Source of the DNA: Thunnus thynnus
Lineage: Eukaryota
Direction of reading: 5' to 3'
NCBI RefSeq assembly: GCF_963924715.1
Contig: NC_089527.1
Location: 28,250,551 to 28,314,550, forward strand
DNA length: 64,000 bases
In this document: positions 19,876 through 43,215 of the stretch, piece after piece
Position numbering within the stretch: position 1 is the stretch's first letter
Layout: every line of letters begins with the position of its first letter
Notes under the pieces: generated by a model
Told to the model about the DNA's origin: nothing
The model's input: the letters and a program-made list of their open reading frames with translations, nothing else
Database searches by the model: none
Program-made: the position numbers and the translations under genes

Positions 19876-20001
19876 ATGGCTGTGTTTGAGAGCTGCTCCG
19901 TGCTTTTGGAGCTGAAAAACTTGCCGTTCAAGGAAAAGAAGAAGTTGAAGTCAGCTGTAACAGAGAATGGAGGCAACATCTCCTTTGTGGTCAACAAACA
20001 G
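19876..20001 (+). CDS. parp4: PARP4 (vault PARP) coding exon 1: start codon and BRCT N-terminus
   Basis: MAVFESCSVLLELKNLPFKEKKKLKSAVTENGGNISFVVNKQ aligns with human PARP4 MVMGIFANCIFCLKVKYLPQQQKKKLQTDIKENGGKFSFSLNPQ. The donor is cag|GTcaga. The polypyrimidine tract plus cacag immediately 5' of the ATG suggests an upstream non-coding exon. Confidence 0.8.
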
Positions 20002-20293
20002 GTCAGATGATGTGATCACTCTCCGCTGCCAGTGCCTGGTTAGGCAGGTATCACCCTGTTTGTAGAGATGTCAGTCTGGTTAAGGTCCTTTTATTAAAAA
20101 CAGAATATATCCTTCTACAATATGATTAATGCAAATGCAGCTTGCATGATTATATGTCATCCTAGTGGTACAATCGAGAAAGACGTCATGGCATTCTAGA
20201 TTTGGTCTGCCTCTGCCCGATGGATATACAGTATTCATATACAATATCAAAACTCACAACTTGTTTTCTGATTTCTGTCTACATTTTCAACAG

Positions 20294-20519
20294 TGCTCTC
20301 TGATTGTGACCAATGACATATCCAACCTGAGCTCCAACAGGCTTCGTAGTGTCCAGAAATACCAAACGCCCGTGGTCGGGATGGATTATGTGTACAGCTG
20401 TCTGGGGAGAGGAGTTCTTCTGCCTGTGGATGAATACAAGCTGGATACTTCCTGTCTCTCTGCTTTTTCTCCTGCTCTTTCTCTCTCCTCACCAAGGCGA
20501 GATCCACTCTCACATCAAG
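20294..20519 (+). CDS. parp4: PARP4 exon 2: rest of BRCT domain and start of linker
   Basis: CSLIVTNDISNLSSNRLRSVQKYQTPVVGMDYVYSCLGRGVLLPVDEYKLD... matches human CTHIILDNADVLSQYQLNSIQKNHVHIANPDFIWKSIREKRLLDVKNYDPYKPLD. The acceptor is caacag| and the donor is caag|GTatcg. It ends in phase 1. Confidence 0.7.
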
Positions 20520-23005
20520 GTATCGTCTTTCATAGGCAGAACTGTTTCCGAGAGGCGCACAGACATCCATAAATATTTTGCAACATGTACACTAAAACAG
20601 GAGAAGAACCTCTTGTGCTCTGCTGTGTTGTTTGCTTGTTTTATGTGGACATGACAAAAATACTTTCATCAGATCACCTTTGTCACGTCCACATGAGATA
20701 AAAAAGCAAAACATGCATGTATAGTGTACTGCATGTAGTTATTTGACAGCAGAGTGATGTGGGGAAGTTTTAACTAAAAAAGTGGGAATCAGTTTGGGTG
20801 GACTGAATAGGAATAACATCATATTTCCATGTAAGAAAAATATCATCAGTAAAAAAATTAGGTAACAAAGTTAATCTGTTAAGAAAAAAAATTACTTTCT
20901 TCAGGAAGTTTAGGTGTCCACTTCACAGAGTCTTTATTCATGTATATATTCAAATTCATACATAATTCAGGATTAATTAAAGCAGCTATAATAAATATTT
21001 TTATAGTAACGCTGTGTGATATCTTAGGGTACATGTCATTAGATACGACACTTGTCTTCAGTTGAGCTGGCTTTAATGTACTAACGGCCATAACCACGTT
21101 ATAACATGACCAACATGGGGGTACAACTTCTCTTAGTTACTGCCATAACATTCTGCGTAAGACTGTATATAATCCCTCTTAATGGTAAGTGGTACCAGAG
21201 CCTTCTAGTGGCTCGGGGCTGCAATGACATGCAACAGTCACTTCATGACACGCTGTATCAAATGACAGTGTGTAATGTGAGAGACATCACTCATAGTAAT
21301 GAACCTAAAGCGAATTATCACCCTACTCTGCAGCTCCTTTCGGCTTTACAGAGTTTTACGGCAAGTTTTACGGCACTTTACTGTTTTGTTTCACTCTCAC
21401 CACTCTCACCGCTCTCATAGTGTCATTTTCTGCTGCAGCAGGCAGCTGTTTTTGAGTTAGCGACTAGCTGGTGAACATGGTTGATGGAACATGGTGATGG
21501 AGAATTTGGCAGCTTAAGAGACAGATATTCCACTCAGGAGTTGATAGAGCCAACAAACAGAGCTAAAAGAGACTGAATATTGGACTTAAATTCATCAGGT
21601 GACCAGAAACATGACTCAAATGATAATGTTGCTCTGTAACTACAGGATGTGTAAATAAGCAAGTGTTTGCTGCAATGGGGCTGCAATATAACAAGTTGTC
21701 AGTGTTGTGTTCACAATTTATTTCCACAGCCAAGTGGTCAAAATTTGTTATAATTAAGTTACTGCAGGTTTAAGGGGTCATGTTAATACATGCATACATG
21801 TCTATTTTACTTCTGCCTGTGCTGGATAAAAATAATGCTTACAGGTTTCATGTAATAATGAATTTCACATTTCTAGTTTGGTACATAAAACATAAAAAGA
21901 ATTTGCTATTTACCATAAGTTGCAATAGCTGCAATGGTTGGGTAGGAAAAGAAAATAGCGCCACTTGTAAAAACTCAAAGTACCTCCCAACACCCAAACA
22001 CAAGGAAATCTGACTCTCACCAGCGCTGGCTCCAATTCAGGAGGACTGAATTTGATTGGCTACTGCATTTGACTTCCCCATTGCCAGGCCTGAATATAAT
22101 CCACGCCATATAATTAACAGGTGATATCTGGAAAATGTTGTGCAAAAACACCACAGCAATAAATGCTTAGCATCAAAGTTGGAGACTAAGTAGAAAAACA
22201 CAGATTTGCGGATTCTTTCTTAAAAATAACATACATGTTGGAAAATGAAGTAACTGCAGCAGTAAAGTGAAGGACCATGATGGTGAAGGCCACAGCACGC
22301 CTAACCCTAAACTTGATATTTGTACATGCACGTTATTTAGCTGATAATGTATCATACTTTTATATTAAAGTGCGGACTATGCAGTGTGGATTTGTACTGT
22401 AAACTGTGCAATCAGAGATGTGGGAGTGAAAAATGCCGATCACTCACTTTGTACTCTCTCAGCTAGTTACAGAAGGCAGACAAAAAAAAAAATCAGAATC
22501 AGGACTCCACCCAGTTCCAGCACAATGACTCATGATCCCTCTGTGAACCTGCCTTTAACATTTAGCACAGATACAAGTTACAAGTTCCTTGTGTTTTGGA
22601 CACTGGTCCAGTAGCTTTGTCTCCCCACCTTTGTTTCCGTGATGATATATGGACATGCTGATGAAAAATCCAGTTTACACTCAGTCAGCAGGTTTAAGTG
22701 CAAACAACAGTCTTTTAGTTAGATAAAGGGTGTGTTTGCTCATCTGGTGTGTGCTGCACTCCACATTGTTACACATTCATATTTCTTTAGAGCAAACATA
22801 CCGCAATGAAGTGTCATGAATGATGTGTGTTTGTGATAATCCATTTGTCACCTTATTTACATAGCCGGTGTGTACTGAAGTTTAAATGCATACCAACTCT
22901 AATGCATTTATTGCAGAACATGTGACTTGAGTTTGAGTGTGTTGCTAATGTGTGCGTGTGTGCTCTATCTGTGTATTTTAGTAACTGATATACTGACAAG
23001 TAGAG

Positions 23006-23105
23006 CAGTTGCTGAGCCATCCAAAGGTCAAGCTGAGCCTGTGGACTCTATAAGCCTGACTCAGAGGGTGGAGACTCAAGAAAGGAGTGGAGGCATTCTG
23101 GAAAG
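23006..23105 (+). CDS. parp4: PARP4 candidate acidic-linker exon (NAGNAG acceptor; start 23006 or 23009)
   Basis: (A)VAEPSKGQAEPVDSISLTQRVETQERSGGILE(R) corresponds in character to human linker SSEVKTEGLCPDSATEEEDTVELTEFGMQNVE. The donor is gaaag|GTtcag. It closes the phase gap between exon 2 (phase 1) and the next exon (needs 2 carried-over bases). Confidence 0.45.
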
Positions 23106-23699
23106 GTTCAGGTGTGGATAAGAGTCATCCTCATACAATAACACTGTCAATTGTGCAGATTGTGTACACATCATGAAACTTTCATCATTCTTAAACAGTA
23201 TATAGATTATATATATGTTACTTTGATTTATTGTTATTAATTTCCATGAAAAACTTAATAGCTTTCTCATATGAGGAGAGTAATGCTGTTTGTCCAGATT
23301 TTTTTCTTTTGTCATTACACCATCAGTCAAAGATTTCAAGGATTATAGTATTAAAGAGAGTAGCTTTCTCACAGCCACTGGCAGGGCACGCTTTAAAGGG
23401 AGCAATCCACCATAAAAATAATTTGTTTTGAAAATGTGATTATTTTTTCTATTTGGGAGTTCAAATCCCAAATTTATCCATTCGAAGATGCAGTTAAACC
23501 ACATGTGCCTCCTGAAAAATAACTAGCGCTCACATGGCGGTAGAAACAACTGGGGAAAACACACTGCTGTACAAGAGCTGGAAAACTAAGTCAGCATTTA
23601 GTTTTCATAAACATTTCTGCAGAAAAGTGTATTCTCAAATAATATATAGGAAATGACATTTATCTTTGCATTTTTGTTGTCATTTGTTAAATTTTACAG

Positions 23700-23778
23700 A
23701 ATTTATACTGAAACTGATCATGATATTCCAACATACCCGGATCATTTTCAAGTGGCCAAATATTCCATCTTTGAAAAG
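23700..23778 (+). CDS. parp4: PARP4 exon: linker
   Basis: (R)IYTETDHDIPTYPDHFQVAKYSIFEK matches human EIPHLPQDFEVAKYNTLEKV. The acceptor is ttttacag| and the donor is gaaaag|GTaaag. Confidence 0.75.
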
Positions 23779-23870
23779 GTAAAGCTGCAATTTATTTCTA
23801 GGTTACTGCCACCACTACTGTTACTGTATTACAATGATTACTATCATTTATAATCAACATTTCTCTTTAG

Positions 23871-23975
23871 ATTAACAGCAACACTTGGTGCATTCTGGAG
23901 CTGCAGAGTGCCAAAGGAAAGAAAGGGCGGCAATACCGTGTGGTCAAGTATTGGAAGGACGATATAGGAGCTAAT
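23871..23975 (+). CDS. parp4: PARP4 exon: linker
   Basis: INSNTWCILELQSAKGKKGRQYRVVKYWKDDIGAN matches human AVVVELQCSRDSRDCPFLISSHFLLDDGME. The acceptor is ctctttag| and the donor is ctaat|GTaagt. Confidence 0.7.
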
Positions 23976-24330
23976 GTAAGTCTGTTGTATATTACTGTTT
24001 GTAGTGCATCTCAGCTCACAGATTACCTTATTTGCTTGTTAGCAGTTTGGTAATATTTGATTTCTTTGAGCTAGATAGTAAGGACAAACAAAAAGTAATT
24101 ACAGTAAAATCACCGCTTCAAACTGTGCTATATACATGAGTCAACATTTAGACCATCATAAGACACTAATCTGTCTAAATCCAGACCACATGTGTCCTTG
24201 AGTCAGAGTCATCCAGTTTTAGCTCCAGCAGAGTCATGAGTCAAAATTTGGGGCCCATGACTGGACTTGAGTAGAACAATTTTCATGTTGGAAGAACATA
24301 AAAACATGTACCCTGTCTTTGTGCTAACAG

Positions 24331-24489
24331 AAGGCGGCAGTGAGGGATATGCTGGCATTTCTGTCCACCTCAGAGGAAGCTCTAGAGATGTACCAGGCCT
24401 TGAAAGAGACCCTGCAGGCTTCAGGTCTGCAGCTCAGGACCAGCATCCCTCCGCAGGCCCGTGACCTGGGCTCCCTCCCCCTCCAGCAG
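24331..24489 (+). CDS. parp4: PARP4 exon: start of PARP regulatory (alpha-helical) region
   Basis: KAAVRDMLAFLSTSEEALEMYQALKETLQASGLQLRTSIPPQARDLGSLPLQQ. The acceptor is ctaacag| and the donor is cagcag|GTccga. It is in frame with ORF 24340..24534. Confidence 0.75.
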
Positions 24490-24960
24490 GTCCGACACAC
24501 TCTCTGCACATTGATTCAGCAATTGAGACATTAGCTGACTGCGCTCCAAGTAATAATGAAACGAGTACCATAGCTCAACTAAGTATGCACTGAGTTCCAT
24601 GATTTGCCAGGTTACCAGACCTTTGTGGTCCGCTCCTCATCTCTGCTCGAGGCTAGCGGCCACTAGCATAACACATCTGAATCCCAAATCAAACTGTTGG
24701 CAGTCAAGTTGCATTGTGGGTAACATTGGCGCCAGGTTTTGTCAAGGAAAAAGACTGCATCGTTTTTTTTTCAGTCCTTTTTGTTAAACTGCCCATCATG
24801 AAGCTGACAATGTTAAATGTTAATCAGTGCAGTACTCTTTTAAGGTTGGCTTTGTGTTCTTAAGATATCTGTGCGCTTAGAGTAATTACTGCTGCTGGAC
24901 TTTCATGCTAAATTTAATTAGCTGATCAGTTGATTGACATGTGCCTTGTTTGCCTGGCAG

Positions 24961-25098
24961 CTGCTGCTGGAGGAGAAGCTGAGCACAGGAAGCTTGTCGC
25001 AGGATGTGGGCTTGTTTGTGGAGCTGCTGTGGACCGAGGCCCTGGGTTGCCTTGGCAACATCCTCAGAGTTTCAGTCGACAAACTCAGCCTCAATGAT
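24961..25098 (+). CDS. parp4: PARP4 exon: PARP regulatory domain
   Basis: LLLEEKLSTGSLSQDVGLFVELLWTEALGCLGNILRVSVDKLSLND matches human LLLEEVMNSSTLSQEVSDLVEMIWAEALGHLEHMLLKPVNRISLND. Confidence 0.9.
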
Positions 25099-25240
25099 GT
25101 AAGGCTTCCCCTGTGGATCGTCCTGTGAAATCTCAGTCTGACAGTAGCATCAGCTGTCCCGTCAGCCTGTTGTTTGTTTCACCTTCCAAGAAAGACTGTC
25201 GGATCACAAATCTGATTAGAATCACACCGTTGCTCCATGC

Positions 25241-25244
25241 TGTC

Positions 25245-25276
<32 letters not shown>
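25241..25276. repeat. (TG)18 microsatellite forming the 3' end of a PARP4 intron
   Basis: tgtgtgtgtgtgtgtgtgtgtgtgtgtgtgtag, immediately before the exon at 25278. Confidence 0.9.
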
Positions 25277-25277
<1 letters not shown>

Positions 25278-25445
25278 GTGAGCAGGGCGGAGGGCTTGTT
25301 GATTCAGGCTCAAAGAAAGCAGAGAGAGGGGAATTATGCTGAGGTGATGTCCCTTCTGGATGAGGTTTACACCCTGCTGCCACACAGAGAGCCCCATCCA
25401 CCTCCCAATGCCAAGCTCATCTCTCAGAAACTGGACCTCTGTCAG
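25278..25445 (+). CDS. parp4: PARP4 exon: PARP regulatory domain
   Basis: VSRAEGLLIQAQRKQREGNYAEVMSLLDEVYTLLPHREPHPPPNAKLISQKLDLCQ matches human VSKAEGILLLVKAALKNGETAEQLQKMMTEFYRLIPHKGTMPKEVNLGLLAKKADLCQ. A (TG)18 repeat runs directly into the acceptor: tgtgtgtgtag|GTGAGC. Confidence 0.9.
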
Positions 25446-26959
25446 GTATCACAGGACATATACACATGTGCAAACACGTGGATACCAGCATTCAGTATAA
25501 AACAGGCTAAAAGAGCTAAAAGTGCTATTATAGTTTTAATAAGGCAGATACACATGTATACAGTCATAAAGAACCACATACTGTGTTATAAACACTCTTA
25601 GGGTGTTTTCAAAACTGCTTGTTTAGTGTGGTTGAACTGGACTCTGGTTGGTTTTCTTCTTTGGTGTGATTCGTTTGGGCAGGTCTGAACACAGCAATCA
25701 CACTTGGGTGTGGACCAAAACAACCATACCAAGACCCTTTAAAGGAAGTTGTCTCAGTCTGGTCGAAAACAAATTCTCCTCTGACCCATCTACAAGGCAT
25801 ACTCTGCAAGTTTGAGCTTAAATTGCTCCTGCAGCCAGGTGCGCATACTGGGACACACATTAAAGCGACAGTTGCTAGCAGCTAGCTGGAGAATGAAGGT
25901 CAGACCTGGACTAGCAACAAGGTATGTTGCCTTGATGCTAATTGGGCAAGTAGGACCTTCTTCAGGACCTTCTTCCTGTTTATGTTGAGCGTAGTGAATA
26001 CGAGCGGACTGAATGTTCTTTTTGATTCAATTGAATTTTGTGGGAAAAGAACCAAAGGTAAAACATAACAAGTTTACCAATCATATCATGAAAATCATCC
26101 ACCGATTTGGACTAGAGCAAACAAACCTTAGGTTTGAAAACACACTTAAACACGCACACACTAAAGGCTTGTCTACACAGGAGGCCGAGTTTTTCAGGTG
26201 TCCATTTCATGCATGTCTGGTGGAACAGATAAGCTTCTATACACACACAAGCACAATCCCAAGAGTTATTTTTCACTTCAAGTCTATTTTCTTCAGTTTT
26301 ACGCGTGTCTCTACAGTGTTATTGTATTATTGTGTGTTAGGCTCTGAGCGCTGCAAAACATAGGTGACTTACAATCAATACTGTCCCTTAACCACATCTG
26401 ACAGAAGACTGAAGCTACTGGTACTTACATGCTGCTTGGATATTCTTACTCTGCCATATTGTTTGTGGTGATTTCAATTTGAGGGATTACATGGTTGAAA
26501 AAATTCTGAGACTTCTTCAGCTTAAACCACTGTGATAAACTTAAAAATGTGTTGTGACAGAAATACCATCAGGCTTGTTCTTTTTAGTTCTTGAACATTT
26601 GACATACAGTAAAATAGTTTTTAATTCAACAGTACATGTATAGACATTACATTTTTAAATATGAAGATTTGTGTTCATTGTATTTATTGTTTAGGTATTA
26701 AAACCTGTTAATATCAAAGAGTATAACCAACTTTATCTCATTTTGTCTCACAATAAAACACTATTATTGTTTCACCACAAAACATTACAAATTTACAATT
26801 TACAGCATGTCTCTGCTGACAGCAAAATGTAAAAAAAAAAAATGTAAAAATTGTTGAGTCATCAATACAAACTATTAGCTTATATCCATAAACCCAAGTC
26901 ACTACTGTCCTCTGTGCATGTGCATGCTAATATTAACAAAATAATTTCTTGTTTTCAAG

Positions 26960-27111
26960 TTAATCAGAGATGTTCTGAATGTGAGTGAGATGACCCTGAG
27001 AAGCCCCGCCCCTTCCTGTCTGGGGAAGTATCGTGCTCTGAGGTGCAGCATTGAACTCGTTCCCCCTAACAGTCCTGAGTTTCAGGATGTGACTGCTCTG
27101 CTGCAGGACAG
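26960..27111 (+). CDS. parp4: PARP4 exon: PARP regulatory domain
   Basis: LIRDVLNVSEMTLRSPAPSCLGKYRALRCSIELVPPNSPEFQDVTALLQD(R) matches human LIRDMVNVCETNLSKPNPPSLAKYRALRCKIEHVEQNTEEFLRVRKEVLQN. Confidence 0.9.
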
Positions 27112-27792: not shown

Positions 27793-27924
27793 CGCGGTGC
27801 AGATCCAGCAGGTTCTACGTGTTAGCAGAGGGGTGGAACTTCAGACTTTTAAAAGTGAGCTGAGGAACATTAAGTCCCTCCTCCACTCCTCCAGCCCCAG
27901 CAACTTTGTAGGAATCCTGTCTCG
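27793..27924 (+). CDS. parp4: PARP4 exon: PARP catalytic domain, includes the conserved His
   Basis: (S)AVQIQQVLRVSRGVELQTFKSELRNIKSLLHSSSPSNFVGILS(R) matches human VDVLQIFRVGRVNETTEFLSKLGNVRPLLHGSPVQNIVGILCR. The donor tcg|GTgaga is followed immediately by (AC)~30. Confidence 0.85.
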
Positions 27925-27930
27925 GTGAGA

Positions 27931-27988
<58 letters not shown>

Positions 27989-27992
27989 CCAG
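27931..27992. repeat. (CA)~30 microsatellite starting 7 nt into a PARP4 intron
   Basis: cg|gtgagat-cacacacacacacacaca... Confidence 0.9.
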
Positions 27993-28602: not shown

Positions 28603-28627
28603 AATGTTGCTCTCTCTCTCTCTCTTT
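28603..28627. repeat. (CT)n repeat forming the polypyrimidine tract of a PARP4 acceptor
   Basis: tgctctctctctctctctctttag|tggtctg. Confidence 0.85.
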
Positions 28628-28629
28628 AG

Positions 28630-28728
28630 TGGTCTGCTGCTGCCTCGTGTTGGAGTGGAGCATCATGGGATAGAAAGAACAGATGTTGGGAATCTTGGAA
28701 GTGGAATCTACTTTAGCAATGCTGCGAG
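28630..28728 (+). CDS. parp4: PARP4 exon: PARP catalytic domain, Gly/Ser/Tyr motif
   Basis: GLLLPRVGVEHHGIERTDVGNLGSGIYFSNAA matches human GLLLPKVVEDRGVQRTDVGNLGSGIYFSDSLS. The acceptor's polypyrimidine tract is a (CT)n repeat. Confidence 0.9.
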
Positions 28729-29096: not shown

Positions 29097-29280
29097 CACC
29101 AGTCTGAAATACTCCAAACCCAGTGTGACAGATGGTTCTCGGTTGCTGCTGGTGTGTGATGTGGCATTGGGAGGGTGCAAGGCCGTCCACAAGAGAGACC
29201 CCACGCTGACCCAAGCCCCTGAGGGACACGACAGTGTGCATGGGGTCCGCCATACCCCAAACACTCAGTCTGAGTTTGAG
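29097..29280 (+). CDS. parp4: PARP4 exon: PARP catalytic domain
   Basis: TSLKYSKPSVTDGSRLLLVCDVALGGCKAVHKRDPTLTQAPEGHDSVHGVRHTPNTQSEFE matches human TSIKYSHPGETDGTRLLLICDVALGKCMDLHEKDFSLTEAPPGYDSVHGVSQTASVTTDFE. Confidence 0.9.
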
Positions 29281-29725: not shown

Positions 29726-29867
29726 GATGATGAGTACGTGGTGTACAGTCCCGATCAGGTGAAGCTGAACTACGTGGTTCAGTTCAGCATCAATGGAGAC
29801 CAAATGCAGGAGTTCAGTCCTTCTATCAACACCTCAGCTGCACCGTGTCTGCCCTCCTGTGACCAAG
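29726..29867 (+). CDS. parp4: PARP4 exon: PARP catalytic domain, catalytic Glu
   Basis: DDEYVVYSPDQVKLNYVVQFSINGDQMQEFSPS... matches human DDEFVVYKTNQVKMKYIIKFSMPGDQIKDFHPS. The catalytic glutamate is retained in the context FE-DDEY. Confidence 0.9.
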
Positions 29868-30130: not shown

Positions 30131-30273
30131 TGATGAGCTCTGAGGATGACAGGACTGAAAGCATTAAAAACCCACTGGAGGATGTGACAGCTGGACTGTT
30201 GGACAGTTCTGGTCAGCAGCTCCCTCTGCAGGCCGTCCATGTGAAGTGCAAACTGATGGATCTGCTCTCTCAG
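30131..30273 (+). CDS. parp4: PARP4 exon: linker into VIT domain
   Basis: VMSSEDDRTESIKNPLEDVTAGLLDSSGQQLPLQAVHVKCKLMDLLSQ matches human ...STKAGLQDASGNLVPLEDVHIKGRIIDTVAQ. Confidence 0.85.
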
Positions 30274-30475: not shown

Positions 30476-30607
30476 GTCATCATCTTCCAAAAATACACCA
30501 ATCTTAGCTCTGTGCCCATTGAGGCGAAGTACGTCTTCCCATTGGATGATTCTGCAGCAGTGTGCGGATTTGAAGCTTTCATCAATGGGAAACATGTGGT
30601 GGGACAG
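30476..30607 (+). CDS. parp4: PARP4 exon: VIT domain
   Basis: VIIFQKYTNLSSVPIEAKYVFPLDDSAAVCGFEAFINGKHVVGQ matches human VIVFQTYTNKSHVPIEAKYIFPLDDKAAVCGFEAFINGKHIVGE. Confidence 0.95.
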
Positions 30608-30919: not shown

Positions 30920-31006
30920 GTGAAGGAGAAAGAGAAAGCTCGCAAGGAGTACAAGCAGGCTATCGAGAAAGGCCATGGAGCCTACCTCATGGACCAGGAT
31001 GCTCCC
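30920..31006 (+). CDS. parp4: PARP4 exon: VIT domain
   Basis: VKEKEKARKEYKQAIEKGHGAYLMDQDAP matches human IKEKEEAQQEYLEAVTQGHGAYLMSQDAP. Confidence 0.9.
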
Positions 31007-31193: not shown

Positions 31194-31358
31194 GATGTGT
31201 TCACTATTAGTGTGGGCAATCTGCCACCCGGTGCAACTGTCCTCATCAAAGTTACCTTTGTGTCTGAACTGATCGTCAGAGACGAGAGTATTTTTTTCTC
31301 CCTGCCTGGGAGTGTTGCTCCGTGGCAGGAGAGTGCAGCGCTCAACCAGACCACACAA
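31194..31358 (+). CDS. parp4: PARP4 exon: VIT domain
   Basis: DVFTISVGNLPPGATVLIKVTFVSELIVRDESIFFSLPGSVAPWQESAALNQTTQ matches human DVFTVSVGNLPPKAKVLIKITYITELSILGTVGVFFMPATVAPWQQDKALNENLQ. Confidence 0.9.
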
Positions 31359-31808
31359 GTGAGAAGAGCCCAATAAAATCTATACTAAAAAGTCCCAACC
31401 CAAAGTCTCAGTTCCTCCTCTGTCAGCCATCAATAGTGTGAAAAATGGCAAAAGGCCCCCAAGGAAGCAAAAGTCTATTATTGTACAATGTATGCATGTA
31501 CTGTGAATTCTTCAATTCAGTCTCCTTATTTTCCTTCTGGTGGATGATTAACATATGTTTTCATAGTTTAAAGACAAATCAGTGTATGACATAGCTAACA
31601 TATCTGGACTTGTGGTGTGTGGTTCTCAGTTTGAATTTGTAGTTTGCCTATTGTGTTTGTGCATGATTAAGCCATCATTACAGGATAAATTATTAACTGA
31701 GGCCAAGTGTTGGTGATTTTGGTATTTCTCTGCTTCATTAGGCCTGTCTCCTTCTATCTCAGCTTAAGCTCATCTGTGTTTTTTGTGGGTTTCCCTTCGC
31801 TCAATAGG

Positions 31809-31855
31809 TCACTGTGGAGAAAGTGTGTGTGACCGATGAGGCAGCAAGTACAAGG
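31809..31855 (+). CDS. parp4: PARP4 exon: VIT domain (short)
   Basis: VTVEKVCVTDEAAST(R) matches human DTVEKICIKEIGTKQS. The donor is acaag|GTgagc. Confidence 0.8.
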
Positions 31856-31976: not shown

Positions 31977-32058
31977 AGAGTTCACCCTGGACATGTCAAT
32001 TGAGATGCCCCATGAGATCACCAGCCTGCAATGCATCACTCACAAAGTCAAGATGAAG
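31977..32058 (+). CDS. parp4: PARP4 exon: VIT domain
   Basis: (R)EFTLDMSIEMPHEITSLQCITHKVKMK matches human SFSLTMSIEMPYVIEFIFSDTHELKQK. Confidence 0.85.
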
Positions 32059-33093: not shown

Positions 33094-33231
33094 AGAACAG
33101 ACTGTAAAGCCGTGGTGAGCGTGCTGCCAGGAGAAGTGATGGGTCCAGAGGGTTTCCAGCTCCTAGTCACTCTGTCTGAGGTTCACCTGCCCAGGATGTG
33201 GGTGGAGAAACACCCTGACAAGGACAGCCAG
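33094..33231 (+). CDS. parp4: PARP4 exon: VIT C-terminal part
   Basis: RTDCKAVVSVLPGEVMGPEGFQLLVTLSEVHLPRMWVEKHPDKDSQ matches human RTDCKAVISTMEGSSLDSSGFSLHIGLSAAYLPRMWVEKHPEKESE. Confidence 0.95.
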
Positions 33232-33316: not shown

Positions 33317-33506
33317 GCCTGCATGTTAGTTTTCTATCCAGACTTTGACGCAACCTCCAGTCCAGCATGTGATGAAGTCATCCTGTTGCTGGACACGTCT
33401 GAGTCCATGAGGGGGGAGTCTCTCCGTACAGCCCAGAGACTCGCCCTGCAGGTCCTCAAAACCCTCGACCATAACCTCAGACTCAATGTCATCTTCTTTG
33501 GCACAG
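33317..33506 (+). CDS. parp4: PARP4 exon: start of vWA domain
   Basis: ACMLVFYPDFDATSSPACDEVILLLDTSESMRGESLRTAQRLALQVLKTLDHNLRLNVIFFGTG matches human ACMLVFQPDLDVDLPDLASESEVIICLDCSSSMEGVTFLQAKQIALHALSLVGEKQKVNIIQFGTG. It contains a MIDAS-like D-x-S-x-S motif. Confidence 0.95.
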
Positions 33507-33883: not shown

Positions 33884-33954
33884 ATCATACAGATGCTTTC
33901 CAGACAGCGCAGCCACTTATTGAAGCTCGTCAGGCTGCCGAGAGCTTCATCAAG
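33884..33954 (+). CDS. parp4: PARP4 exon: vWA domain (an alternative acceptor 9 nt downstream, at 33893, is equally compatible)
   Basis: (D)HTDAFQTAQPLIEARQAAESFIK. The acceptor is ctatcag| and the donor is caag|GTgagt. Phase is consistent with its neighbours. Confidence 0.6.
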
Positions 33955-34874: not shown

Positions 34875-35062
34875 CGCTTTTCTCCAGTAGGGGGCAGCAC
34901 TGAGCTGTGGCGGCCCCTGCGAGCTCTCAGCCTTCTGCCTCCATCCCGTGGTGTCAGGAATCTGCTGCTACTGTCGGACGGCCATGTCCAGAATGCGGAG
35001 CTCACCTTGCAGCTGCTCAGAGACAACGCCCAACACAGCCGCCTCTTCACCTGCGGCCTCAG
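34875..35062 (+). CDS. parp4: PARP4 exon: vWA domain
   Basis: RFSPVGGSTELWRPLRALSLLPPSRGVRNLLLLSDGHVQNAELTLQLLRDNAQHSRLFTCGL matches human TMGNTDFWKTLRYLSLLYPARGSRNILLVSDGHLQDESLTLQLVKRSRPHTRLFACGI. Confidence 0.9.
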
Positions 35063-36106
35063 GTCTGAATGGGTCACAGGGGATATGAAAATTAGCTTAG
35101 TGTTGATGTTGATGAGTACCATGCTAGATGGTGCAGCCCCACTGTACGCAAACTGACTGGAAACAAAATCCACACTCATTCATTGTCTATGGGAAGCGAC
35201 TAATTCGCTGCACAAAGCATGCTGGGATACCTGGCGACATGGACCAAGCTGGCGGTGTGACAAGAGGGCAGGAAAAATTCAAACAGTGCTCACATCAAGA
35301 CAGCCTATCAAGCTACAGCACCGGCGACTTTCTGAACAGCTATGTGTACAATCATGAGACACTCCCACCCATGCCCACAGGCGACCAGCGGGGCAGGGAG
35401 GACGCAAGATTATACATACATTATGGTCGTGTAGAGTGGGGCTTCACCATAACACTGTGTGTTCAGACAGAAAGTGATGTGAATTTTAGACGCGGCATGA
35501 CTGCATCCAAAATCAATGGAAGGATGCGATAAGGCACAAATTCGCCCAGGGTTGCGCAAAGTGATGCAAAGACGCATCCGCACAAATTGAAAATGTTCCA
35601 ACTATTTGGCATAACTGGAGGCTTTATGAATTTGCTTCAAAAACAGACATAGACAAGAGGAAAAAGGTTTGAAAAGTCTCCTGTGAGTTCTGAGTTCAAT
35701 CAGAAGCTGAGCTGAACACGGACACACTGGCAAACATCTGCAGTTAGCTAACGTACAGTTGGTGCAATGGTTGTCTGGGGGCGAGACAAAATTAAGATGC
35801 TGACCTATGAGTAAAATTTCCAAATCTATGACGGAAAGACAATTTTGATTGAAGAGGTGAAAAAAACATGTAGGCAGGTTAAGCTCTTCAGAGAGGTTGT
35901 TTAATACTCTGTGATACCTGAGGCCTTACATAACAGTTACATAACAGTTATGTTAAATGTTATACACTGCATTGGTGTACAGTGCTGCAATACTTCACCC
36001 TGTGTGGAGTTAAACCTTCAACAAATATAGCTGCTGTGCTTTGTACTCTGAGATTCTTTTTTACAGACATTTTAAGGTGTGTGTTTATGTATCTCTGTCA
36101 TTTCAG

Positions 36107-36206
36107 CCCGACAGCCAATCGGCACATGCTGAGAGCCCTGGCCCAGGCAGGGGGCGGAGCCTATGAATTCTTTGACACAAAAACCCGACACAACTGGACA
36201 GAGAAG
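36107..36206 (+). CDS. parp4: PARP4 exon: vWA domain
   Basis: (S)PTANRHMLRALAQAGGGAYEFFDTKTRHNWTEK matches human GSTANRHVLRILSQCGAGVFEYFNAKSKHSWRKQ. Confidence 0.9.
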
Positions 36207-36654: not shown

Positions 36655-36825
36655 GTGGCATCTCAGGTGAAGCGTATGGCATCTCCTGGCTGCAGCTCAG
36701 TGGCAGTGAAGTGGCAACAGTTCAACCCAACAGCGCCCCCTCCTGTGCAAGCCCCCAAGCAGCTCCATGCTTTGTTCAATGACTGCCACACTCTAGTCTA
36801 CGGTTTTGTGCCAAACTGCACTCAG
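36655..36825 (+). CDS. parp4: PARP4 exon: vWA C-terminal part
   Basis: VASQVKRMASPGCSSVAVKWQQFNPTAPPPVQAPKQLHALFNDCHTLVYGFVPNCTQ matches human IEDQMTRLCSPSCHSVSVKWQQLNPDVPEALQAPAQVPSLFLNDRLLVYGFIPHCTQ. Confidence 0.9.
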
Positions 36826-37213
36826 GTATGCATTTTATATACATTATTACTAATTGAATAACAGTTTTGATTTGTTTCTTCTTTTTACTTCAGATATTTT
36901 CATATATTTGTTCATATATTTTTCATATAAGTGTGTGTATCATTTTGAATCTCAGTTAAGGCTGCAACTACCAGTGTTTTTTAATCATGAATCAATTAAT
37001 CTGTCGATTTTTTCTTTGTAATTTTTGAGAGCCGAAGGTGATGTCTTCAAATTGCTTTGTTTGTCCAGCCAACAGTTCAAACCCAAAGATATTATATTTA
37101 CAGTGATTAATGATCAATTATTTAAATGATGAATTAATGAGTAATCAAATTGGTTAATCAAAGAGTAATTTCAGCACTAATCTCATCTTGCTTCCTGCCT
37201 TTACTTCATATAG

Positions 37214-37294
37214 GCCACCCTCCTTGGCAACCTGAGTGGTCAGGAGCTGAAAACCATGGTGTCCACCAGTGAGCTGCAGAAATCCAGGGGCACA
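37214..37294 (+). CDS. parp4: PARP4 exon
   Basis: ATLLGNLSGQELKTMVSTSELQKSRGT matches human ATLCALIQEKEFRTMVSTTELQKTTGT. The donor is ggcaca|GTaaga. Confidence 0.85.
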
Positions 37295-37514
37295 GTAAGA
37301 ACACACACACTCATGCTCTGTACATCACAACTGACAGATCTCAACAGTATCTGCTGTATATGTTTAAATAATAACACTGTGAAGAGGTGAAACTTTAACA
37401 TTAATTAACTTTAACTAGTTTACCCTACAGAAACTGATGCATGTTGATGGTGATTGTCATAATCATGAGGATGATGAGGTGATGATTGTAATGTGTATTG
37501 ATGTGTGTGTTCAG

Positions 37515-37595
37515 TTTCTTCACAAGCTCACAGCGAGGGCCCTCATCAGGGATTATGAAGACGGAAGCCTTGATACCAGTGAAGCTGAACATGAG
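37515..37595 (+). CDS. parp4: PARP4 exon
   Basis: FLHKLTARALIRDYEDGSLDTSEAEHE matches human MIHKLAARALIRDYEDGILHENETSHE. Confidence 0.9.
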
Positions 37596-37715
37596 GTGTG
37601 TTTGCGTGTGTCAGAGTGAGACCTAAAGCAACCCCCCCACCATCACCACCACCCCTGGTTTACTTTTCTAGCTTGAGCTTGACATGTTGACATAGATTTT
37701 TGCTTTCTTTTACAG

Positions 37716-37811
37716 GGGAAGAAAGCTGAGCTGAAGTCCTTCATCATTGAGTTAAGCAAAGAGTTCAGCATCCTGTCTCAGTTCACCAGCTTTGTGGCCA
37801 TTGAAGAAAGG
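37716..37811 (+). CDS. parp4: PARP4 exon
   Basis: GKKAELKSFIIELSKEFSILSQFTSFVAIEER matches human KKQTLKSLIIKLSKENSLITQFTSFVAVEKR. Confidence 0.9.
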
Positions 37812-37993
37812 GTTTGTGCATTTTTTCAGGCTCCTTTACATTTATACTGTCATTTGTATTCACTTCTGGAAGCTGTTCAGTACAACCAACCCTCCACCCC
37901 AACAACCAGTCACATTACACCCTGGACTTGAAGGATTTGTCACATCGTATTTTGTAGTTCCCAAACAAACCAAACTCCCCTACATTGTTTTAG

Positions 37994-38152
37994 GACTCAG
38001 ACCAAACAGAGGGCTTCACAGACATCCCCAAGTTAATCGCAGAGGAAGATGTTGACTTCCTCCCCTACATCAGCTGGATGTCTCGTCAGGACTCCAGAGA
38101 GGAAAAGGAAGTGGAGTGTTTTGATGATGCTTGTGACAGTTGGTCTATGGAG
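37994..38152 (+). CDS. parp4: PARP4 exon
   Basis: DSDQTEGFTDIPKLIAEEDVDFLPYISWMSRQDSREEKEVECFDDACDSWSME matches human DENESPFPDIPKVSELIAKEDVDFLPYMSWQGEPQEAVRNQ. Confidence 0.9.
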
Positions 38153-38231
38153 GTAACCTAATGCTGTGTGTAGTGTAATCAGGAGTTTTACCAAGTTCCA
38201 CTTTTATGAGCTGCATTTGTCTCTGTTGCAG

Positions 38232-38294
38232 AAAGTGTTGGTTGGATCGTGTTGGACTGAAGTGGATGGGGCGTCCTCTCTCTCTTCATCCACG
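38232..38294 (+). CDS. parp4: PARP4 candidate small exon (phase 0 in and out, optional to the frame chain)
   Basis: KVLVGSCWTEVDGASSLSSST; the CWTE motif resembles human ...LLDLSWTESCKPTATE. The acceptor is tgttgcag| and the donor is acg|GTtagt. Confidence 0.5.
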
Positions 38295-38906
38295 GTTAGT
38301 CCCCTCAGCATAAACTGTAGCTGCAGATTTGTTATTTAAGGGGTGACAATAAATACATTTTTTAAACAGAGCTGCTTTTTTGTGCATGGACAGTGTAAAA
38401 AATAAACAATCATGTTTCTTTCAAAAGTGCTGGTGTCACAACACCTGTAAAACCCACGGCTGCAACGCGCCTGTCTGGCACAAGCACATATAATTGTCAA
38501 AGCAGGGCAATGCCCAGCGCTCCTTTGCTGTGGTACATTATTCTAAGTCTTCCCACATGTGCTTCACAAAGAATGCATTTTAATGTGAAGCAGGCAGAAG
38601 CAGGCCATTATTGTAAAAGCTACTTTAGGGTGTGTTAACAGCAAGGTCAGCTAAAGGTTTTCGTGATACAATCAATCTAACAACAGATTTAGACATTGTC
38701 CTGCACTTTATGAAGAAGAAGAAGTCGGACACAAAATAATATGTACTACATTTTTGACAACGCACGATGAAGGAAAGTCAGATCAGGAAATGTGATGATT
38801 GATGAACATCAATGAACTTTTAGTTTATAGTTGTTCAGTCTAAATTTGTGAAAAATTAGGCCCTGACTCCCTTTGTGTTTTCTTCATAATTTCTCTCCTT
38901 TTGCAG

Positions 38907-39952
38907 GATTCCTCTTCTCTGGAGGACATTGTTCACAAAAGGAGTCGGAGCATGAGCTTCATGGAAGACGGAGATGAAGTGATGGAATGTCTTTTAGGGA
39001 GAGAGAGTCCAATTGATCTGCACTTGGTGGGAGGTTTCCATCTTCCTGCTCCCCCTCCTCCTCAGGAAAATTCTTCATTTTCCCAACCCCAAGCATCTCC
39101 AGTCCCTCCACCTCCACCTCCCCCTCCTTTAATTCACTCTTCATCCCTGTCATTTGATTGTCTTCCTTCTCCTCCTTGTTTTATGTCTCCTCCTGCACCT
39201 AAAAGTGTTCTTTACCATAATGAAAGGCAACGTGTATTCAGTGAGTCACCACAGATGCACAAGAGTTTCAGGAGCTTAGGGATACCCAGTTGTGGGCAAA
39301 AAATGTCTCATAGTGATGTGCGGGCGGAATACAGATCGCACCACAGATCTTATGTGCCAACTAAGGTGTTGAGACAAAAGCTGTCAGCTAAATTTGCAGA
39401 CACAGAGGAGAGTTCCACTGACTCTGAGGAACACACAGCTGGACCTGCATCTGCTCCAGATGATCACTCAGATGATTTTGCAAGATCAGAGCCATCTCTT
39501 GGAGGCTCAGTGTTCGCAGCTGAAACAAAAAGCTTCTCTTTTGTTGAGGCCAAACCTAATTCTGCAGTTCAACAACAGCAAGCTATGGCAGCAATCTATG
39601 GGAAAAGGGGCAAGTCAATCCAAGTTCAACCCCTTAACCCAGATCATCCAACAGAAGATGGCGCTCCAAGTCCAGTTTACGCACGAACAGCTTCTTATAG
39701 AGAAGCGAGTTTGCAAGGGTGCTCTTTATATACAAATGAATTGATGTCTGAAGCAGACATCGCACCAACAGATTTTTCTTTTGGGGCAAAACTGGCCCAG
39801 AGTGAACCTGCAGCTGGTGGAGGTTTACCTGTTTCATGGGGGAGGACTGCACTATTCAGACTAGATCGCCCTTCAGCTGGGTTCACAGTACAATCAGCAA
39901 CTGCAGTGTCTTTAAGCAAGGAGCATCCTTATCCTCTTCATCTATCCTCCAT
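38907..39952 (+). CDS. parp4: PARP4 long proline/serine-rich exon (1046 nt), the low-complexity region between the vWA domain and the C-terminal MVP-interaction domain
   Basis: ORF 38901..39956, 351 aa: DSSSLEDIVHKRSRSMSFMEDGDE...LPAPPPPQENSSFSQPQASPVPPPPPPPPLIHSS...SPPAPKS.... It is analogous to the human PARP4 Pro/Ser-rich region. The acceptor is ttttgcag| and the donor is ccat|GTgagt. It ends in phase 2. Confidence 0.8.
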
Positions 39953-40274
39953 GTGAGTCTCAAAACAATTATTCATTTTTTAGATTTGCTTCATTTGAGA
40001 AAATCATAATGTAAACACAATTTTACAACAACAAAATATTTTAAATGGTGGCAAGGCTGTGGGTGACAAAATGGATAGTCTGGATCATCTCCCTGTTAAT
40101 TGTTCTGTGTGTATGTGCATCTACATGTATGCAGGTGAAAAGGAGAAAGTCAGCATAAGTGTGTTTATCTATAGTATGTTTACCTGTCTGAATGCATGTG
40201 CTTTATTCATATATAACAGTTGTCACACTATTGTCAATATTTACTAAGACTGTCCTGCTGTGATCATGTTTCAG

Positions 40275-40341
40275 GAACATGTCCGCAGATCCTGAAAAAC
40301 TGAAGCTCAAATGGACAAAGATTTTCCAGATGCAGCATTCA
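40275..40341 (+). CDS. parp4: PARP4 exon: C-terminal region
   Basis: (M)NMSADPEKLKLKWTKIFQMQHS matches human ...QDAVPWTELLSLQTE. The donor is cattca|GTaaga. It restores phase 0. Confidence 0.65.
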
Positions 40342-41845
40342 GTAAGATATGTTAAAATGTCATTGGGTGTGAAGCCAAGGAACAGATCAGTTTTAGATGT
40401 GTGTAGAAAAGATTTGTTTTCATCATGGCTGCATTTTATGCAGATATAGCAGTTCCAGGGCCCTGGTATTGTTGGTATCAAGCTCCTAAATTAAATCTTT
40501 GCTTTTGTTAGCGCCAAGTTCAAATGTTGGCTATATTAGCTATGGTTTATCCAATTCCAATCCTTTCTTTTTTGTAACCCATTGATCTCTGGGACTTCTG
40601 GTTGTCACAAAGGCTCAGTTGTGCTTTCTTTCCAGTGTAAGGTAGTACAGTGGTGGCGTGCGTCAGTAAGCAGTTGCTTTGCGTCTGTTGTAGCAACATT
40701 CCTGTTATGTTCTGCCATAGTTTCAAAAGTACAGTTTAAATTTTTATATAGTCATTTTCATTAGATGTCATGCTTACTTAATGGCTTTTCTTACAATCCA
40801 ACATAGAAAGCATTTTAAGCAGTGTTTTAGAAGTGTTTTTGACCTCCGTCACTTGTGCGTCTCACAGAACAGATATGCTTCCATTTTATTAAATGTATCA
40901 GTCCACACTGAATCCAAGAGACATGCATCTACCCAGGACCCCCTGCATTTTTTTACGCTCTGAGTCGAGTATTTTTTATATCCTCTTCCTCATTTCAAGG
41001 GGTGTAATCTGCACAGTCAGCTGTTCAAATCGCACAAATATCCTGCTGTATATGTGTTTTGAACTTATTAACGGTATCAACATTGATTGATCAAGGCTCC
41101 CAGTCTGTCTGTGAGCTGCCTGTTTCACTCACTCAGGAAGATTCCCCTCACTTGTTCTGGTGGGCAGGGAAATAAAATCAATGAATCAATAAATACAAAC
41201 ACTGTTGATTTCCTCACATGGAGCCGACATGCAAACTATTTTGGTTTAGTACATTTCTGCTGACAGTCAGCCTGGTGAAGACAGACGGCTGCTTCTGTGG
41301 ACAAAGACACTGAACACAGGTCGGAGTCGGTGTGGCTTGAATGGATAAAACATGTTTACGCATGGCTCACTTTCTATGTGGATTCCCAGTTAGCAAACAA
41401 TTTCTGTGCCATTATACATAACGTGTAACATATTACATTGAATTACATTAATTTAGCAGAAGAAACTTACAATAGCTGTGCTCAACTTCAGCATAGGTTT
41501 TTGTCAGGCTGACAAAATATATTGATACACACTTACATGTATCCATACATTTGTCATTTAATATTATGCTCATGTTAGAGCTGGGGAGAAGCTGTGGCTC
41601 TCATCTGTTGCATCTCAGTGTGAATAGATTGTTTGAATGGAAAAGTTTTGGCCTACTGTTTAATCTTTTCTTTGATTAAAAAAAAAACGTTTTAGCTACC
41701 CTATACTATAACCACTCTTGCTGTACTAGCAGTCCACAGGGAAGAGGGACATACTGTATAGTATATATTATACATTCTAGTGGCATTGTTCTTACCACTT
41801 TGCATAGAAAATGACAAATTGTGATATTTGTCTGTATGGTTGCAG

Positions 41846-41948
41846 GCGGGCTACTGGGAGTTAACAACAGAACTGGGGCAATTCATGAATATCAACGTAG
41901 ACCTCTTTGCCAACGTGTTCCTGAAAAACAAGGGCATCTGTTCTCTAG
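41846..41948 (+). CDS. parp4: PARP4 exon: C-terminal MVP-interaction region
   Basis: AGYWELTTELGQFMNINVDLFANVFLKNKGICSLG matches human DGFWKLTPELGLILNLNTNGLHSFLKQKGIQSLG. Confidence 0.9.
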
Positions 41949-42375
41949 GTGAGCATTTCCTCAACCTGTTTCAGGCCTACAGAGTGGAAATAGCTTTGTT
42001 ATTTCTGATCAAGTTGAGTAATTCTAACTTCTTGTTGGGAGTAGAGAATTAGGATGAAGCAGTGATAACAGAAATATTCACATCATTTGCTCAAGTAAAA
42101 CTACCATAATGGAAAATTGCTCAATTACAATTTAGATTTAACATTTTACTTAAAAGCAAAAGACTGTAAGCTTTAAAAGGCCCTGAAAACCTATTTTCTC
42201 ATTCAACTTCTTATCATGATCTACGGGTTCCTACATGAGCACAGCATTTTCTGCTCAAAGAGGTCTGTGGCCTGCCTTTAAAAACTGATACAGATATCTC
42301 AGCCAAAGTCTGAGCTTTGGTTCTCACTAGTTCCAACCAATGTTAAAGACATGCATAAATGTGTATGTGGTCTAG

Positions 42376-42508
42376 GTTTGAGAGCCCATGCTGACATCCT
42401 GAGGCTGGTGGCGACTCTTCTGGTTCTGCAGCTGATGAGGGTGGAGAAGCTGGAGGAAGGAAAACTTCTCCGCACACTTTTCTGCCTGAATGACTCCTCA
42501 CAGCCCAG
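42376..42508 (+). CDS. parp4: PARP4 exon: C-terminal region
   Basis: (G)LRAHADILRLVATLLVLQLMRVEKLEEGKLLRTLFCLNDSSQP matches human VKGRECLLDLIATMLVLQFIRTRLEKEGIVFKSLMKMDDPSIS. Confidence 0.9.
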
Positions 42509-42995
42509 GTCAGTCCACAACAACATGAATAGAGTGAAATTAATTTAAAATGATTAACTTGTTTGCTATTTGTAGAGACACATCAACCGAGTCTAAACTT
42601 GGCACCTAATGAAACTAAAATACAAGTTCAAAACAAGACATGAAGCCTGACTCATGTTAGGTTCAAGTAGAATCACATGTGGGTTACAAAATACAACAGA
42701 TTTAAAACATCATTCAAAAATACAACATAACAAGAAATTCAGAATCCAGCAAAAAAAGTTAGAAGAGGAACTAATCTATACAAGTATCAGCACTTTAGTT
42801 AAACATGACCTTGAATTGCCCAATGCCCTTTAAGGTGCTACTTATAATTTAACTTGCCTTGTTTAACCTAATTTACTAATTTGTGAAAGTATCTTAATTT
42901 ATACTAAGTTTCTTGTCTTAATTATTTTGTGAGCCTAGGTATCACTATTCCCTGAGTGGCTTACTCTTTTGTTAATGACTGACTTTTTCTTTTAG

Positions 42996-43215
42996 GCCTG
43001 AGCGGTGGGAGAAAGTGAAAAGGGCGGTGGACTGGGTATGCTGGGCTGACCAGCAGTACCCGTGTGTCTACAGCCGGTTGGAGTTTGGTTTGAGCTGGGA
43101 ATCCTCCACCCGTCAGCTGCTAGGCTATGAAAGTCTCCTTCCCTTCTCACCTCTCAGTGGTCTGAACCTGCAGGGGACCGCAGCGCCTCTGCTAGTCCAC
43201 AAAGCAGGCCAATAA
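42996..43215 (+). CDS. parp4: PARP4 terminal coding exon with stop codon TAA at 43213-43215
   Basis: (R)PERWEKVKRAVDWVCWADQQYPCVYSRLEFGLSWESSTRQLLGYESLLPFSPLSGLNLQGTAAPLLVHKAGQ* matches human RNIPWAFEAIKQASEWVRRTEGQYPSICPRLELGNDWDSATKQLLGLQPISTVSPLHRVLHYSQG*. There are candidate poly(A) signals AATAAA at about 43557 and about 43737. Confidence 0.9.

Follow-up and report, generated by a model that had tools for sequence, protein, structure and literature searches.

The PARP4 (vault PARP) gene of the tuna Thunnus thynnus: a transcript-verified exon structure and conserved catalytic and major vault protein contact residues

Introduction

Human PARP4, the vault PARP, combines BRCT, WGR and helical (HD) domains with an ADP-ribosyltransferase (ART) domain that carries a His-Tyr-Glu (H-Y-E) triad and yet mono-ADP-ribosylates only (PMC10711553). 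Several residues disable the acceptor site: T484, which occupies the position of K903 in PARP1, as well as E544, D545, N471 and K516 (PMC10711553). The residues through which the human protein contacts major vault protein (MVP) repeats 3-5 are S1614, K1618, Q1682 and R1689 (PMC12280208). Daugherty et al. found that primate PARP4 evolves rapidly in its largest exon only; this exon, number 30 in human, encodes about 360 disordered residues, and its ratio of non-synonymous to synonymous substitution rates (dN/dS) between human and rhesus is 1.75. The same study found that this pattern reaches other vertebrates (PMC4038475). Here, we report on a stretch of 64,000 nucleotides from Thunnus thynnus (contig NC_089527.1, positions 28,250,551 to 28,314,550; hereafter the window, with position 1 as its first letter), which almost certainly holds a single, intact and expressed PARP4 gene of this genus. 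An earlier note, drawn up from the letters of this DNA, had proposed a complete PARP4 ortholog encoded by a chain of 35 exons.

Identity and domain architecture of the gene product

The coding span of the gene extends on the plus strand from the ATG at 19876 to the last base of the TAA stop codon at 43215. In the list of open reading frames (ORFs), it appears as a long run of short open segments, and a patchwork query of 233 aa assembled from such ORF pieces matched only PARP-, VIT- and PARP4-like fish fragments, collinear with the window. Spliced, the gene yields a coding sequence (CDS) of 5403 nt and a product of 1800 aa, to which all residue numbers refer unless stated otherwise. This product is, as a string, identical to XP_067460380.1, 'protein mono-ADP-ribosyltransferase PARP4 [Thunnus thynnus]' (100% identity and coverage), while the entries for T. 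maccoyii (XP_042282849.1) and T. albacares (XP_044222156.1), each of 1800 aa as well, differ by 19 and 21 residues, respectively. Among solved structures, the best match is human PARP4 (11jf_P, also 9bw6 and 9bw7; E = 0, 1083 bits); a spliced ORF of 5.4 kb combined with a match of this quality is therefore not a product of chance. The best 120 database matches are fish PARP4 proteins, bar a few unnamed or misnamed predicted proteins. The assignment to PARP4 made in the earlier note is borne out by these searches.

The domains follow each other in the order BRCT, a probable WGR-like domain, HD, ART, VIT, vWA, a long Ser/Pro-rich segment and a C-terminal MVP-interaction domain. With the 1790-aa form of the product that results from a shorter exon 3 (see below), Pfam recognized BRCT, the PARP catalytic domain, VIT and vWA in this order, all above the curated cutoffs: BRCT at aa 3-79 (4.3e-7) and BRCT_2 at aa 15-90 (6e-8), a region that aligns to the crystallized human PARP4 BRCT chains 9dfo and 9dev; the PARP catalytic domain (2.6e-29) at aa 418-577 of that form, corresponding to 428-587 in the 1800-aa product; VIT (1.6e-37); and VWA_3 (2.9e-20) together with VWA (9.9e-11). 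These domains had been listed before, and so had the C-terminal MVP-binding region, for which alignment and the family PF26156 speak; the probable WGR-like domain, by contrast, had been missed. The identical RefSeq protein and the transcript products carry a recorded match to PF26166 (WGR-like_PARP4), and the region aligns weakly to human residues 141-246; our own Pfam search of aa 100-270 at E <= 10 gave no WGR-like match, with a library that seems to be without PF26166. The HD-ART portion aligns to the crystallized fragment of human PARP4, 8sx1_A, with an E-value of 1.2e-81.

All motifs that the earlier note had singled out, LLHSS, GSGIYFS, FEDDEYVVY and the D-x-S-x-S motif of the vWA domain (D904-T-S906-E-S908), are in place. 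The H-Y-E triad is formed by H459, Y499 and E569, the counterparts of human H438, Y477 and E547. Four acceptor-site positions are identical to those of the human enzyme, T506, E566, D567 and N493 corresponding to T484, E544, D545 and N471, and R538 stands at the position of human K516. Since the acceptor-site residues that define the human enzyme as a mono-ART are thus kept, this K-to-R replacement apart, the tuna protein is predicted from its sequence to be a mono-ART, which narrows the earlier designation of a probably active 'mono- or poly-ART'.

The last 150 residues align to human residues 1571-1716 with an E-value of 5.8e-29, and the alignment runs ungapped over the junctions of exons 32/33 and 33/34. 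PF26156 (PARP4_MVP-ID) is on record for identical or near-identical products; a Pfam search of this segment at E <= 10 returned no relevant match, the library used seemingly being without this family. The MVP-contact positions are S1682, R1686 (a K-to-R replacement), Q1748 and R1755 in the tuna protein. Because the contact residues are kept, docking to the vault can be expected to be conserved in tuna.

One might ask if the locus encodes a different member of the family, be it a PARP of the PARP1/2/3 type, a heavy chain of the ITIH group or a 'PARP4-like' paralogue peculiar to one lineage. The N-terminal third of the protein is indeed homologous to PARP1 and its middle part to ITIH proteins, both as weak matches, and some teleosts possess genes that have been named 'PARP4-like'. 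However, human PARP4 scores 1083 bits, where PARP1 and PARP2 attain about 45 bits (E-values for PARP1, PARP2 and PARP3 of about 1e-8 to 1e-11) and the ITIH1 and ITIH4 chains stay below 30 bits (E-values of 2e-6 to 1e-4). Furthermore, PARP4 alone joins a BRCT-WGR-HD-ART arrangement to VIT-vWA and to a domain for MVP interaction; all of these parts, the probable WGR-like domain included, are present and collinear in the tuna protein, which RefSeq names PARP4 in three Thunnus species. An identity other than PARP4 is hence extremely unlikely. Nothing in the sequence argues against PARP4, of which the window holds one copy. The evidence behind this assignment has its limits. The regulatory helical domain proposed in the earlier note is backed solely by the alignment to 8sx1, whereas PF02877 (PARP_reg) gave no match to the HD segment at E <= 10; 'PARP4-like' paralogues do exist in some other teleosts; and the transcript contigs presented below probably originate from a sister tuna species and not from the sequenced individual, given their divergence of about 0.7% from the window and the presence in them of 17-20 of the 21 T. 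albacares-type residues.

Gene structure and transcripts

Our gene model was built independently of the coordinates in the earlier note, from splice-site weight matrices, codon log-odds and a dynamic programme to which homology anchors were added, with doubtful junctions curated by hand at the nucleotide level. A human PARP4 sequence served solely as a guide for exon finding; wherever the PDB chain 11jf_P was displayed in an alignment, the two agreed. The model comprises 35 coding exons that are in frame, are separated exclusively by GT-AG introns and contain a sole stop at the end (Table 1). Together with one non-coding 5' exon, the gene possesses 36 exons and spans about 25 kb. The junctions that fixed the model were the starts of exon 4 (23700) and exon 5 (23871), the donor AAG/GTGAAC of exon 13 (end at 29867), the end of exon 23 (35062) and the starts of exon 27 (37515) and exon 34 (42376). 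The end of the large exon 31 was set by the strong donor CAT/GTGAGT at 39952, with a 67-nt exon then following at 40275-40341. When exon 3 is set to 23006-23105, the phase-consistent chain described in the earlier note, with its 35 exons totalling 5373 nt and predicting 1790 aa, is reproduced exactly; only exon 3 of that chain needs to be replaced.

Several candidates raised along the way were discarded. The exons 25839-25921 and 41137-41159 of the dynamic programme were spurious and were dropped on the basis of homology, those at 34875-35143 and 37431-37595 were too long and were shortened on the same grounds, and the acceptor at 42331 was wrong and was replaced by hand from homology; the transcripts agree with each of these decisions. 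The exon at 23700-23778 was missed in the first run of the programme, extended to 23801 in the second, and fixed by homology and transcripts. The fragments retrieved with the 233-aa patchwork query turned out to be pieces of genomic contigs or read-through ORFs, of no use for the placement of junctions.

Transcript evidence came from five Logan RNA-seq contigs of tuna samples, L001 to L005 (runs SRR33509398, SRR33509438, SRR33509440, SRR33509385 and SRR33509489), drawn from the 90% cluster of tuna PARP4. A contig search with the exact RefSeq-identical product yielded nothing, and it was near-identical members of the cluster that led to these contigs. With lengths of 5.8-7.0 kb and coding capacities of 1797-1800 aa, they represent spliced mRNAs. 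On alignment with the window, all five break up into 35 or 36 blocks of 97-100% identity whose ends coincide with the exon ends of the model, so that every model junction is supported. The CDS of L001 and the spliced CDS of the window are both 5403 nt long and differ by 38 mismatches, at most one of them in any junction window, and by 0 indels. An in-frame indel of 9 nt (3 aa) within exon 31 (at about 39784-39792, aa 1572-1574; L002 and L003) separates the 1797-aa from the 1800-aa products. The comparison with RNA-seq data that had been proposed as a check on the earlier exon chain thus confirms its junctions outside exon 3, among them those of the small exon at 38232-38294.

The contigs also delimit the untranslated regions (UTRs), which lie outside of the coordinates of the earlier note. 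L004 and L005 align from 19365 and 19369, respectively, to 19408 and then jump to 19874, an acceptor located two bases ahead of the ATG; in L001-L003, a leader of 11 nt has its only match at 19397-19407, with a GT directly after it. L005 begins with an Illumina adapter immediately before 19369, which suggests that the 5' end of the transcript is situated near this position. The 3'UTR has a length of 1.3-1.5 kb.

Exon 3 is the place where the earlier chain has to be amended. The linker exon that it placed at 23006-23105, and for which it had asked for transcript support, is used by none of the contigs: five of five contigs, and the RefSeq product as well, contain 22982-23111, an exon that is longer by 24 nt at its 5' end and by 6 nt at its 3' end and leaves the frame intact. 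Might the shorter exon, and with it the 1790-aa protein, represent a genuine alternative isoform? It is in frame, it is flanked by AG and GT, and the donors at 23105 and 23111 are only 6 nt apart, a spacing that is sometimes used alternatively. However, the longer exon is the one found in contigs from five different runs, and RefSeq lists solely the 1800-aa form in three Thunnus species. In addition, the acceptor at 23006 lacks a pyrimidine tract (tactgacaagtagag/C), whereas that at 22982 possesses one (ctatctgtgtattttag/T), and the residues that the shorter form would lose (VTDILTSR and FR) are found in other fish orthologues, FR being present in 14 of 14 aligned sequences. We therefore deem a shorter isoform very unlikely and regard 22982-23111 as exon 3.

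A number of splice sites lie next to microsatellites. Tracts of (TG)n/(CA)n (tgtgtgtgtgtgtag immediately before the splice position), for instance at 25247-25274, abut the acceptors of exons 8, 14, 20 and 27, where they replace the usual pyrimidine tract. A further run, (CA)28 at 27932-27987, follows the donor of exon 10 at a distance of 8 nt. These microsatellite-flanked sites are nonetheless used in all transcripts.

Table 1. Exons and untranslated regions of the PARP4 gene of T. thynnus, in coordinates of the window.
Feature	Position	Strand	Residues and content	Evidence and remarks
Non-coding 5' exon (5'UTR)	19365..19407 (5' end approximate)	+		Transcript contigs; donor AAA/gtaagc joined to acceptor at 19874
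Coding exon 1	19876..20001 (physical start 19874; ATG 19876)	+	aa 1-42, N-terminal half of BRCT	Model, transcripts, Pfam
Coding exon 2	20294..20519	+	aa 43-118, remaining BRCT and start of Ser/Pro-rich linker	Model, transcripts
Coding exon 3	22982..23111	+	aa 118-161, linker	Transcripts, RefSeq identity, fish conservation
Coding exon 4	23700..23778	+	aa 161-187, WGR-like region begins (DHFQVAKY)	Model, transcripts
Coding exon 5	23871..23975	+	aa 188-222, WGR-like	Model, transcripts; spacing as in Electrophorus PARP4-like fragment
Coding exon 6	24331..24489	+	aa 223-275, WGR-like end and N-terminal helix of catalytic region	Model, transcripts
Coding exon 7	24961..25098	+	aa 276-321, HD	Model, transcripts; alignment to human PARP4 HD+ART chain 8sx1_A
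Coding exon 8	25278..25445	+	aa 322-377, HD	Model, transcripts, structure-chain alignment
Coding exon 9	26960..27111	+	aa 378-428, HD-to-ART transition	Model, transcripts, structure-chain alignment
Coding exon 10	27793..27924	+	aa 428-472, ART, catalytic His459 (LLHSS)	Model, transcripts, Pfam PARP, alignment
Coding exon 11	28630..28728	+	aa 472-505, ART, Asn493 and Tyr499 (GSGIYFS)	Model, transcripts, alignment
Coding exon 12	29097..29280	+	aa 505-566, ART, Thr506 (human T484), Arg538 (human K516), Glu566	Model, transcripts, alignment
Coding exon 13	29726..29867	+	aa 567-614, ART end, Asp567 and catalytic Glu569 (FEDDEYVVY)	Model, transcripts
Coding exon 14	30131..30273	+	aa 614-661, linker into VIT	Model, transcripts
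Coding exon 15	30476..30607	+	aa 662-705, VIT	Model, transcripts, Pfam VIT 1.6e-37
Coding exon 16	30920..31006	+	aa 706-734, VIT	Model, transcripts, Pfam
Coding exon 17	31194..31358	+	aa 735-789, VIT end	Model, transcripts, Pfam
Coding exon 18	31808..31854	+	aa 790-805, between VIT and vWA	Model, transcripts
Coding exon 19	31977..32058	+	aa 805-832	Model, transcripts
Coding exon 20	33094..33231	+	aa 833-878	Model, transcripts
Coding exon 21	33317..33506	+	aa 879-942, vWA start, D904-x-S906-x-S908 (LLLDTSESM)	Model, transcripts, Pfam
Coding exon 22	33884..33954	+	aa 942-965, vWA	Model, transcripts, Pfam
Coding exon 23	34875..35062	+	aa 966-1028, vWA	Model, transcripts, Pfam
Coding exon 24	36107..36206	+	aa 1028-1061, vWA end	Model, transcripts
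Coding exon 25	36655..36825	+	aa 1062-1118, conserved post-vWA region	Model, transcripts
Coding exon 26	37214..37294	+	aa 1119-1145	Model, transcripts
Coding exon 27	37515..37595	+	aa 1146-1172	Model, transcripts
Coding exon 28	37716..37811	+	aa 1173-1204	Model, transcripts
Coding exon 29	37994..38152	+	aa 1205-1257	Model, transcripts
Coding exon 30	38232..38294	+	aa 1258-1278, small (63 nt)	Model, transcripts
Coding exon 31	38907..39952	+	aa 1279-1627, 1046 nt, Ser/Pro-rich; counterpart of human exon 30	Model, transcripts; donor CAT/GTGAGT
Coding exon 32	40275..40341	+	aa 1627-1649, MVP-interaction domain start (KWTKIFQMQHS)	Model, transcripts, human alignment
Coding exon 33	41846..41948	+	aa 1650-1684, MVP-interaction domain, Ser1682 (human S1614)	Model, transcripts, human alignment
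Coding exon 34	42376..42508	+	aa 1684-1728, MVP-interaction domain, Arg1686 (human K1618)	Model, transcripts, human alignment
Coding exon 35	42996..43215	+	aa 1728-1800, Gln1748 and Arg1755 (human Q1682, R1689); ends TAA	Model, transcripts, human alignment
3'UTR	43216..44731	+	Continuous with last exon	Transcript ends 44521, 44577, 44659 and 44731; AATAAA at 44640

Signs of rapid change in the large exon

The long Pro/Ser-rich exon anticipated in the earlier note is exon 31, whose 349 residues contain 16% Ser and 11% Pro. When the window was compared with the sister-tuna transcripts, this exon displayed 12 non-synonymous and 2 synonymous differences, as against 10 and 12 in the other 1451 codons, and the latter ratio fits constraint. 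Fisher tests that set exon 31 against the remaining coding sequence gave, depending on the contig, p-values of 0.014-0.033, statistics that derive from small counts and from contigs that are not independent of each other. Estimates of omega by the Nei-Gojobori procedure were about 1.5 for exon 31, about 0.2 in the ART and vWA domains and 0.44 overall. Given the small and interdependent counts, the pattern in tuna is only consistent with the localized rapid evolution that has been published for PARP4.

Taken alone, a dN/dS of about 1.5 in the large exon would be suggestive of relaxed constraint, as expected for a decaying or unexpressed PARP4 pseudogene. Yet the 5.4-kb ORF is intact, all pairs of splice sites are canonical, full-length spliced transcripts are present in five RNA-seq runs, and the catalytic and MVP-contact residues are conserved. 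Moreover, functional PARP4 is known to behave in this way, with a high dN/dS that is limited to this one exon, in primates as in other vertebrates (PMC4038475). The probability that the locus is a pseudogene is consequently next to nil, and we treat it as an intact, expressed PARP4 gene in what follows.

The donor of exon 31 (CAT/GTGAGT, 39950-39958) possesses a further property, in that the first bases of the intron complete the sequence ATG-TGA. Retention of intron 31 would therefore stop translation at once and produce a PARP4 protein that lacks the MVP-binding domain; no retained intron 31 was seen in the five contigs. Adaptive evolution of exon 31 might be operating among these very young tuna species, and a vault-free PARP4 that ends in the variable segment might possibly be formed; we offer this combination tentatively, as a rather doubtful proposal.

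Neighborhood of the gene

The window is AT-rich (about 38-42% GC) and looks eukaryotic, and scans of its entire 64 kb with Rfam and for tRNAs gave no matches. Upstream of PARP4, an ORF on the minus strand (262-588) matches RVT_1 in Pfam with an E-value of 0.01, below the cutoff, and a GC-rich (47%) cluster of overlapping ORFs at 5014-7121 has no Pfam match; both are probably remnants of decayed retroelements. Two tandem C-type lectin genes (CD209/CLEC4-like) are located 3' of PARP4 on the plus strand, at 48221-54837 and 57384-59843. The spliced C-type lectin domain exons of the first (50842-50982, 51326-51436 and 54688-54837) match Pfam Lectin_C with an E-value of 8e-23, and exon 59685-59843 of the second with 3e-5.

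A few public models of fish PARP4 proteins look misannotated or fused. A protein of Sarotherodon galilaeus is listed as 'cell cycle related kinase', a 2350-aa 'low quality' model from Pholidichthys appears to be joined to a small-GTPase gene, and a 2223-aa model from Scortum to a lectin. As the Scortum barcoo model fuses PARP4 with a lectin of the type found next to the tuna gene, this neighborhood is evidently shared.

Discussion

The structure, expression and identity of the T. thynnus PARP4 gene, and the conservation of its key residues, emerge directly from our data. For three Thunnus species, RefSeq already covers the gene along with its product and exon structure, so that the value attributed to it in the earlier note, that of a clean fish gene model, had been realized before; in a family that is well studied structurally, the meaning of our findings is thus largely one of bookkeeping. 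What is gained is a corrected and transcript-verified exon table that includes the UTR exons and can be used for comparative work. It also becomes apparent that a vertebrate gene of 35 coding exons can be recovered almost perfectly from raw sequence, as only the boundaries of exon 3 had been off. Beyond that, a teleost is seen to keep the residues to which human PARP4 owes its character as a vault-bound mono-ART.

By analogy with human PARP4, the C-terminal helical domain would dock the tuna protein inside the vault cage, on repeats 3-5 of MVP, and the ART domain, with its H-Y-E triad and a disabled acceptor site, would mono-ADP-ribosylate targets from NAD+. The BRCT domain, by the same reasoning, probably binds vault RNA. 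The apparently fast-evolving and presumably disordered segment encoded by the large exon may constitute a surface that faces pathogens. In primates and bats, adaptive evolution localized to the largest exon of PARP4 has been described as pointing to a conflict between host and pathogen, and rapid evolution of this exon appears to be visible even between tunas.

How, then, does the tuna protein compare with its best-known relatives? From XP_067460380.1 it shows no difference at the protein level; the version in the earlier note was 10 residues short, all of them in exon 3. PARP1, PARP2 and PARP3 have in common with it the H-Y-E triad as well as the folds of BRCT, HD, ART and, probably, WGR; alignments of the catalytic region reach E-values of about 1e-8 to 1e-11. 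Unlike these proteins, it is devoid of zinc fingers, carries a Thr where PARP1 has its acceptor-site K903, and possesses an HD that PARP_reg does not recognize; PARP1-3, in turn, lack PARP4's C-terminal two thirds, i.e., VIT, vWA, the presumably disordered exon and the MVP-interaction domain. ITIH proteins have in common with PARP4 a VIT domain that is followed by a vWA domain, but they are secreted and contain neither the PARP nor the MVP-binding part.

The closest counterpart with solved structures remains human PARP4 (1724 aa; PDB entries 11jf, 9bw6, 9bw7, 8sx1, 8sx2, 8swy, 8swz and 9dfo), with which the tuna protein shares the domain order, the triad, the T484-type acceptor site, the D-x-S-x-S motif of the vWA domain, one very large exon for a presumably disordered segment and an MVP-interaction domain with conserved contacts. 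Measured against the human guide sequence, identity is about 43% overall, 50-60% in the ART, VIT-vWA and post-vWA regions, and about 26% in the large exon. Tuna PARP4 is 76 residues longer, and the BRCT-to-WGR linker and the large exon are essentially unalignable. Both replacements at the positions highlighted above, K516 to R in the acceptor site and K1618 to R among the MVP contacts, are conservative.

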